Shown: one piece after another, positions 2 to 243 of the stretch
Layout of the letters: each line of letters begins with the position of its first letter
Numbering within the stretch: position 1 is the stretch's first letter
Sequence record: OR846035.1
DNA length: 1,345 bases
Source: a phage
Reading direction: 5' to 3' (one strand)
Translations under genes and position numbers: made by a program
The notes under the pieces: model-generated
The model's database searches: none
What the model saw: the letters and a program-made list of their open reading frames with translations, nothing else
Told to the model about the DNA's origin: nothing

Positions 2-46
2 TTTAACGAAGCGTGGGCGCGATTAAGTGAGAGAGGGTATTTGTGA
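2..46 (+). CDS. 3' end of an unidentified upstream gene (partial; 14 codons plus stop)
   Basis: Frame 2 is open from the window edge (FNEAWARLSERGYL*) and stops at TGA 44..46, while frames 1 and 3 hit stops at 4..6 and 24..26. The stop overlaps the GTG start of the next ORF as GTGA, a typical coupling junction. Too short to identify the product. Confidence 0.35.
   Translation, partial: FNEAWARLSERGYL
31..37 (+). promoter_or_regulatory. Shine-Dalgarno-like site (GAGAGGG) for the 43..243 ORF
   Basis: The purine-rich GAGAGGG sits 5 nt upstream of GTG at 43. The in-frame ATG at 82 has no comparable site. Confidence 0.45.
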
Positions 47-243
47 GCAAGTACGAAAAATTAGATCAAAACATTCTTTCAATGCTGAGTGAAAGACCAA
101 CACCTGTTTTTGATATCTGGCTTAAATGGCGGAGCAATGGAATGTATATCGAAACCATCGATCGCCGTATGCAATACCTGAGAAAGAAAGGGCTTGTTGC
201 AAATGTGCGTGGGAAGGGGTGGGTGAAAATTAACCTGTCATAA
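43..243 (+). CDS. Hypothetical small protein (66 aa), GTG-initiated; possible winged-helix DNA-binding fold
   Basis: ORF-track entry 43..243, stop TAA 241..243. GTG start with SD-like GAGAGGG 5 nt upstream, overlapping the upstream stop as GTGA. Same strand and tight spacing with the nin genes. The stretch IETIDRRMQYLRKKGLV followed by ANVRGKGWVKIN resembles a recognition helix plus beta-hairpin wing; this is pattern-based inference only. I do not recognise a named family. Confidence 0.55.
   Translation: MSKYEKLDQNILSMLSERPTPVFDIWLKWRSNGMYIETIDRRMQYLRKKGLVANVRGKGWVKINLS

Follow-up and report, generated by a model that had tools for sequence, protein, structure and literature searches.

The 1,345-base stretch of phage DNA analyzed here (sequence record OR846035.1, hereafter the window) is a piece of a lambdoid (P22/Sf6-like) nin region, and positions 43-243 of its plus strand hold an open reading frame (ORF) of 66 codons that a preliminary description, made from the sequence alone, had listed as a small protein of possible winged-helix character. 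This ORF is a real coding gene, an accessory gene of the nin region, and its product is predicted to consist entirely of a single winged helix-turn-helix domain, minimal but complete. We consider it probable, with some reserve, that the protein is a dispensable, basic, nucleic-acid-binding accessory protein, whose ligand would be DNA, most probably in the double-stranded B-form, and whose target would be one common to hosts or mobile DNA. The protein has been in the databases as a hypothetical protein since the Sf6 genome; what is newly obtained is a fold assignment, a signature for its family, a corrected start and the distribution over phages and plasmids.

The 66-residue ORF is a coding gene

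The ORF was found as described earlier, with a GTG start, a TAA stop at 241-243 and 66 residues in between, and so were the features at its start: the purine-rich ribosome-binding site reads GAGAGAGGG at 29-37, 5 nucleotides before GTG 43, and GTG 43-45 overlaps, as GTGA, the TGA at 44-46 of the upstream frame that ends in FNEAWARLSERGYL. Its placement in the variable stretch before ninB was likewise borne out, as NinB (541-987), NinE and NinF all come after it. The bare length of a 66-codon ORF is not significant, and the gene call rests on other evidence. The product matches PHROG 7185 (function unknown) over its whole length, with an E of 1.2e-34 and with its residues 1-66 covering positions 1-79 of the 79-position profile, and is residue-for-residue the Sf6 gene 47 protein (gp47; NP_958222), the 98.5% identity that tblastn gives for this pair reflecting only the GTG codon read as Val. 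Conserved homologues, which had been proposed as a check, exist and extend to about 33% identity. Comparison with the 67%-identical copy at locus L065 gave an overall ratio of nonsynonymous to synonymous substitution rates (dN/dS) of 0.16, indicating purifying selection. The signature of the Sf6 gp47 family, K-Y-x-x-L-D-x-x-I ... D-R-R-[LM]-Q-x-L-x-K-x-G ... G-W, which was derived within this analysis, is present in full. Moreover, the region has no competing RNA family, repeat or ORF on the opposite strand. Taken together with a confident fold prediction (see below), the PHROG match, the identity to Sf6 gp47, the homologues, the purifying selection and the lack of a competing feature establish the ORF as a gene. 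No curated Pfam or NCBIfam family covers the protein, and PADLOC and NCBIfam scans gave nothing above noise.

A chance open frame, or a decayed remnant without protein expression, would agree with the non-ATG start, with the very short length of the ORF, with the 33-residue piece that is all that many pipelines call, and with the dispensability of the Sf6 nin region. Nevertheless, this is extremely improbable, given that homologues as distant as 33% identity keep an invariant motif under a dN/dS of about 0.16, that the fold model reaches a predicted local distance difference test score (pLDDT) of 92, and that the start position is conserved, being ATG in the distant homologues.

Predicted fold

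The AlphaFold2 model, computed from a 24-sequence alignment (A2), has a mean pLDDT of 92.2 and a predicted template modeling score (pTM) of 0.77. Its topology is H1-b1-H2-H3-b2-b3, with helix 1 (H1) at residues 5-14, a bridge at residue 20, helix 2 (H2) at 22-32, helix 3 (H3) at 36-48, and strands at 52-55 and 59-62. The coding sequence and the modeled elements lie in the window as follows.

43-243, plus strand: coding sequence of the 66-residue protein, a predicted winged helix (Sf6 gp47 orthologue, PHROG 7185), with GTG start and TAA stop at 241-243
55-84, plus strand: helix 1, residues 5-14 in the AlphaFold2 model, with near-invariant L7, D8 and I11; Y4 stands just before the helix
106-138, plus strand: helix 2, residues 22-32 in the model, the most variable element, followed by an insertion in most members
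148-186, plus strand: helix 3, putative recognition helix, residues 36-48 in the model, with D40-R41-R42-x-Q44-x-L46-x-K48
196-228, plus strand: beta-hairpin wing, residues 52-62 in the model, with R56-G57-K58-G59-W60, of which G59 and W60 are invariant

When the model was compared with the PDB using Foldseek, only winged-helix proteins were returned (probability 0.97-1.00). The top matches were the Rrf2 regulators CymR, RsrR and IscR (template modeling (TM) score 0.65-0.73, 20-30% identity), and BirA, GabR, IclR and Zur were found further down, with a TM score of 0.65-0.79 and a probability of 1.00 across the named matches. Model and matches together confirm the winged-helix character suggested earlier, both the helix-turn-helix and the wing being present in the model. 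Only 4 residues follow the last strand, and cysteine is absent from the protein. With a mass of 7.9 kDa it is strongly basic (isoelectric point about 10.2, net charge about +6.5), residues 33-66 having 8 Lys or Arg versus 2 Asp or Glu. On the strength of the model, the winged-helix fold can be regarded as settled, the sub-family not. Sequence-profile searches of solved structures with the profiles A1, A2 and A3 gave chance-level matches only (sedlin, OspG, MID51 and Arc), and the BFVD matches were almost all unnamed or uncharacterized small phage winged helices, from which no function was gained.

Family and conserved surface

The family is small: among 1.84 billion representatives it forms 32 clusters at 50% identity, and its true members are almost all stand-alone proteins of 60-92 residues. 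The long repetitive proteins P0078 and P0097, considered as domain fusions, turned out to be unrelated repeat proteins. Conservation was measured on 58 representatives below 80% identity, pre-filtered with the pattern D[RS]R[LMI]Q. In this set, D40, R42, Q44 and G59 are found at 100%, the figures for the motif being partly circular through the pattern filter; alignments made without the filter agree with the invariant D-R-R-x-Q. R41, L46 and W60 follow at 98%, D8 at 97%, I11 and K48 at 95% and Y4 at 93%. Helix 2 and the turn between helices 2 and 3 are variable, with an insertion there in most members, and the mean frequency of the top residue is 0.40 in helix 2 versus 0.73 in helix 3. The sub-threshold matches of the family are nearly all to winged-helix DNA binders, namely Rrf2, HTH_Crp_2, LexA_DNA_bind, the PriA-like winged helix, IscR, the Csa3 helix-turn-helix and GntR. 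The most frequent weak Pfam match is the one to Rrf2 (PF02082), seen in 6 of 24 members with a best E of 0.025.

Start codon and translational coupling

The choice between GTG 43 and ATG 82, raised in the preliminary description, falls in favor of GTG 43. In the diverged homologues from Jersey-like, Klebsiella and Enterobacter phages, the codon equivalent to GTG 43 is an ATG start in every case (M-[ST]-K-Y-x-x-L-D), Y4, D8 and I11 are conserved at 93-97%, and codons 2-13 have a dN/dS of 0.17 against L065, a purifying selection equal to that on the remainder of the gene. This evidence points to GTG 43 as the codon at which translation starts, and not to ATG 82 or ATG 142. ATG 82 (82-84, plus strand; Met14) has no purine-rich site upstream of it, is Met in 24% of the 58 representatives and leaves Y4, D8 and I11 outside the protein. 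ATG 142 (142-144, plus strand; Met34) was rejected too, as position 34 is usually Glu, Lys or Asp and invariant residues lie upstream. The purine run GAGAGAGGG is identical across all lambdoid copies, and most of the diverged homologues overlap the preceding gene as ATGA. Translation of the gene is predicted to be coupled, through the GTGA overlap, to that of the upstream gene, a homologue of Sf6 gene 46 (gp46), in line with the coupling suggested before.

ATG 142 is preceded by GGAG at 131-134, which is probably the reason why gene callers often report a 33-residue product. This product (P0067) is indexed in 1,641 blocks of the sequence collection. However, at three of the four P0067 loci checked (L011, L013 and L014; 3902-4102) the full 66-codon frame and the GTGA junction are intact, so P0067 represents a start-site miscall instead of a truncated gene. 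Only L012 (3900-4102) is truly frameshifted among the four, a decayed copy hit in its N-terminal half; the prophage in question also has a split DnaB-like gene, and the 33-residue call there is a true remnant. With the start fixed at GTG 43, the 33-residue annotations are seen to drop two of the three helices.

Distribution in phages and plasmids

Within lambdoid genomes, the position between the replication genes and ninB, on what would be the rightward early transcript, is seen in Sf6, in E. coli prophages and in Salmonella phage S.Kent 1-2-1. The diverged homologues lie in tightly packed early operons of unrelated phages. In Klebsiella phage Mulock and Enterobacter phage CobraSix, for instance, an adenine methylase stands on one side of the homologue and a TraR/DksA gene on the other, near xis-int, and in the Jersey-like phages it comes after a ParB-like gene. 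Homologues of 33-37% identity with the full signature are also present on 537 large plasmids of Klebsiella, Citrobacter, Raoultella and relatives. These plasmids are mostly conjugative, and the three examined are of type MOBH, one of them IncHI1B (loci L095-L098; NZ_CP102078.1, NZ_CP082291.1 and NZ_CP056236.1). On the IncHI1B plasmid the homologue stands within a same-strand array of small hypothetical genes of more than 30 kb. There it adjoins DUF4942, DUF6012 and a CRISPR-associated Cas6 gene.

In several diverged phages, another small protein is encoded beside the homologue. At L003 (3189-3395) the small protein next to the homologue is annotated as a MarR family regulator, and at L065 (2208-2504) and L072 (2150-2488) the neighbors look helix-turn-helix-like by eye, so that early operons may carry small DNA-binding proteins in series.

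Sf6 phages that have lost genes 46-58, in part or in whole, by deletion are viable, and such deletions are adaptive, under laboratory conditions (PMC5630979); gp47 is thus dispensable for lytic growth in that setting. Gene 47 lies downstream of the annotated tR2 in Sf6, which, following the lambda paradigm and the Sf6 annotation, suggests delayed-early, antiterminator-dependent expression.

Proposed function and alternative readings

The small DNA-binding regulator put forward in the preliminary description is still the best reading. In the mechanism we propose, the 66-residue protein would bind nucleic acid, most probably double-stranded B-form DNA, with helix 3 (the invariant D40-R41-R42-x-Q44, and K48) entering the major groove and the hairpin that carries G-x-G-W, and R56 in the window copy, placed on the adjacent backbone or in the minor groove. 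This binding mode is modeled on the helix plus winged helix-turn-helix (H-wHTH) module of the Rrf2 type, to which the protein bears its closest likeness. As there is no dimerization element, the protein would act either as a monomer or by a self-association that is weak or induced by DNA. Considering that helix 3 and the wing are invariant across unrelated regulatory circuits, and that the gene rarely has an upstream intergenic region of its own, a target common to enterobacterial hosts or to mobile-element DNA is more likely than a phage-specific operator. Some observations weigh against DNA binding as proposed here. The wing residue R56 is Arg in only 43% of the 58 representatives; no Pfam, NCBIfam or PADLOC model scores above its threshold, Rrf2 reaching 11.8 bits versus a cut-off of 30; a literature search by name and accession found no paper on the Sf6 gp47 protein; and D8, D40, R42 and W60 may be structural residues that do not contact a ligand.

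The same invariant D-R-R-x-Q / G-W surface could instead be a protein interface, by which the winged helix would dock on a host or mobile-element protein (polymerase, nucleoid protein or defense component) and not on DNA. Phage T4 MotA is a two-domain protein whose N-terminal (activation) domain binds sigma-70 and not DNA. Neither this domain nor other protein-binding winged helices have a detectable sequence relationship to the 66-residue protein, which, compared with the two-domain MotA, is a single, strongly basic domain. We regard a protein ligand as unlikely, since the charge of +6.5, with Lys and Arg concentrated on helix 3 and the wing, is typical of nucleic-acid binders, since the pattern of helix 3 plus wing fits the part of the Rrf2 proteins that contacts DNA, and since no conserved neighbor presents itself as a candidate partner. 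It is very unlikely, in our judgment, that the protein is a phage and plasmid counterpart of the Z-alpha domain (PF02295), that is, a monomeric minimal winged helix reading the conformation of a nucleic acid (left-handed or other non-B DNA or RNA) and not its sequence. The Z-alpha domains taken for comparison (ADAR1, ZBP1, PKZ, poxvirus E3 and CyHV-3 ORF112) have a minimal a1-b1-a2-a3-b2-b3 fold, which the 66-residue protein shares. The essential Tyr and Asn of Z-alpha (Y177 and N173 of ADAR1) are replaced by the invariant Q44 and D40, according to an hhalign alignment. The wing of Z-alpha carries Pro-Pro-x-Trp, whereas the 66-residue protein has the invariant W60 after G-K-G and no proline, and, as the hhalign alignment ends at residue 57, W60 is equated with the wing Trp by inspection only. 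No Z-alpha match was obtained at E<=10 in any of the 24 members, and the hhalign probability was 9.8%.

The winged-helix protein could also be a dedicated partner or regulator of gp46, the two forming a two-gene module. The GTGA overlap implies coupled translation, and gp46 is directly upstream of all 52 gp47 copies of >=90% identity at lambdoid IMG/VR loci, as well as in Sf6 and in E. coli prophages. The chance of such a module is nonetheless very small. The gp46-gp47 cassettes are about 99% identical in DNA (they are present in 68 of 5,426 complete E. coli genomes), and the linkage may reflect recent spread only. Among 32 diverged homologues, the upstream neighbors fall into at least 15 unrelated clusters, including a ParB-like protein (6 loci), a 124-residue protein (5 loci) and various small proteins, and none of these neighbors is gp46-like. 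The check proposed in the preliminary description, whether homologues always sit next to the same upstream gene, therefore comes out positive for the lambdoid loci and negative beyond them. Conversely, phage Oslo has gp46 directly before ninB and no gp47, and the C-terminal domain of gp46 occurs in 88 other phage records. In E. coli S22EC (L006 327-2915), the gp46-like gene and the winged-helix gene have an IS66-family element inserted precisely between them, the winged-helix gene keeping its GTG start with its upstream sequence changed by IS66. From the diverged loci, phage Oslo, S22EC and the near-identical DNA, the pair appears to be a recently spread cassette and not an obligate module. 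Nor is the upstream gene a replication gene, as the preliminary description had supposed when it suggested a partner of a replication protein. The frame-2 translation ending in FNEAWARLSERGYL is the C-terminus of L001:7720-8046 and of Sf6 gp46, a 108-residue protein (PHROG 5903; function unknown) that takes the upstream position in Sf6 as well as in E. coli prophages and in S.Kent 1-2-1. The replication genes sit further upstream of gp46 and are of three types (DnaB-like, lambda O/P/ren and primase-helicase), and the 66-residue gene has no constant adjacency to any of them.

A more far-reaching reading can also be formulated, which we hold to be decidedly unlikely. On this reading the Sf6 gp47 family, found in early operons of phages and in the long same-strand arrays of large conjugative plasmids, would be a shared 'establishment' factor of enterobacterial mobile elements, a monomeric minimal winged helix whose invariant surface recognizes one conserved host target soon after entry and modulates host transcription or immunity. 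Candidates for such a target are a site on the chromosome, a conformation of DNA or a component related to defense.

Small winged-helix proteins are very well known from phages, and the 66-residue protein is of this kind. What the analysis provides is a predicted fold and a testable candidate binding surface (D40, R41, R42, Q44, K48, R56 and W60) for a conserved hypothetical protein outside the curated families. It also reveals that temperate and virulent enterobacterial phages have this small domain in common with large plasmids of Klebsiella and Citrobacter, most of them conjugative. Should a host component prove to be the target of the conserved surface, the family would offer a compact, readily tested case of an early function directed at the host; should the protein be no more than a DNA binder, non-specific or phage-internal, it would be another ordinary accessory gene of the nin region.

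Layout of the window

The nearest public DNA is that of Salmonella phage S.Kent 1-2-1, 99.8% identical over bases 1-1135, where the S.Kent record ends. On the plus strand the order is the 3' end of the upstream gene, the 66-residue ORF, a PHROG 343 gene, ninB, ninE and ninF. Apart from the coding sequence and the elements of its fold, the following features were recorded.

1-46, plus strand: 3' end (last 15 codons) of the upstream gene, the Sf6 gene 46 homologue (PHROG 5903, 108 residues in full), with TGA at 44-46
29-37, plus strand: Shine-Dalgarno-like purine run GAGAGAGGG, read from the sequence, 5 nucleotides before GTG 43
255-584, plus strand: downstream gene of 109 residues, by PHROG match PHROG 343 (function unknown), in a slot that varies among prophages
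541-987, plus strand: ninB, marker of the nin region (Pfam NinB, E 2.1e-48)

The gp46-like protein (L001 7720-8046) has a hydrophobic N-terminal segment, WQIPIVILAGASLVAGFILL. Its C-terminal part of about 75 residues has 42-45% identical homologues in the 88 other phage records, among them those of phage Goslar (237 kb), phage KookSpook (112 kb) and many Salmonella phages of 36-48 kb. The PHROG 343 gene has no Pfam match and overlaps the ninB ORF by 44 nucleotides. In other prophages its slot is taken by a phiTE_015-family gene (PF26207) or by other small genes, and its own cluster is the commonest downstream neighbor among the lambdoid loci (34 loci). The longest-ORF starts of ninE (957) and ninF (1133) are probably placed too far upstream; the Pfam and PHROG matches start at residues 10-14 of the ninE ORF and at residue 8 of the ninF ORF, and both ATG 984 and ATG 1157 overlap, as ATGA, the stop before them. 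At the end of ninF, TAG 1331-1333 directly adjoins the next ATG at 1334. With these two overlaps and this abutment, the operon appears as a series of coupled junctions of the kind seen in the GTGA at 43-46.

A weak terminator-like hairpin (234-257) lies across the stop codon of the 66-residue ORF, with a 5-bp stem CCTGT...ACGGG followed by GTTTGATATG. A terminator scan of the window returned 4 sites where 0.9 would be expected; three lie on the minus strand, and the sites are probably chance matches. Around the gene, no repeats, operator-like palindromes or promoters were found, the short repeats all being two-copy chance matches and the promoter scan giving one promoter-like site versus 2.0 expected. 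An Rfam search of the window returned nothing relevant.

Comparison with known systems

The locus of Sf6 gene 47 shares with the window gene the position after gene 46 and before ninB as well as the GTGA overlap. The two differ downstream of gp47, where the window has the PHROG 343 gene and Sf6 has genes 48 and 49.

Among the regulators with known structures, the nearest counterpart is the H-wHTH module of the Rrf2 proteins (IscR, NsrR, CymR and RsrR), which has three helices and a wing, as does the 66-residue protein. The family is longer, at about 130-165 residues versus 66, and many of its members have three Cys ligands for a cluster, whereas the 66-residue protein has no cysteine and would thus hold no Fe-S cluster. 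The C-terminal dimerization helix of Rrf2 proteins is missing as well, and the wing ends in G-W. In Rrf2 proteins, the motif Lx3Gx6Gx2GGx2L spans helix 3 and the DNA-contacting wing, and the Gly residues of the motif together with the preceding Arg (Arg60-Gly61 in NsrR) contact the DNA minor groove (PMC9338935). The segment L46-R-K-K-G50-L-V-A-N-V-R-G57-K-G59-W60 of the 66-residue protein matches the first part of this motif (Lx3Gx6G), and R56-G57 aligns with the minor-groove Arg-Gly of the Rrf2 wing; the rest reads K58-G59-W60-x2-I63, two residues shorter than the GG-x2-L of Rrf2. From this sequence likeness, the 66-residue protein is expected to work like an isolated H-wHTH module of the Rrf2 type while not being a member of the Rrf2 family.
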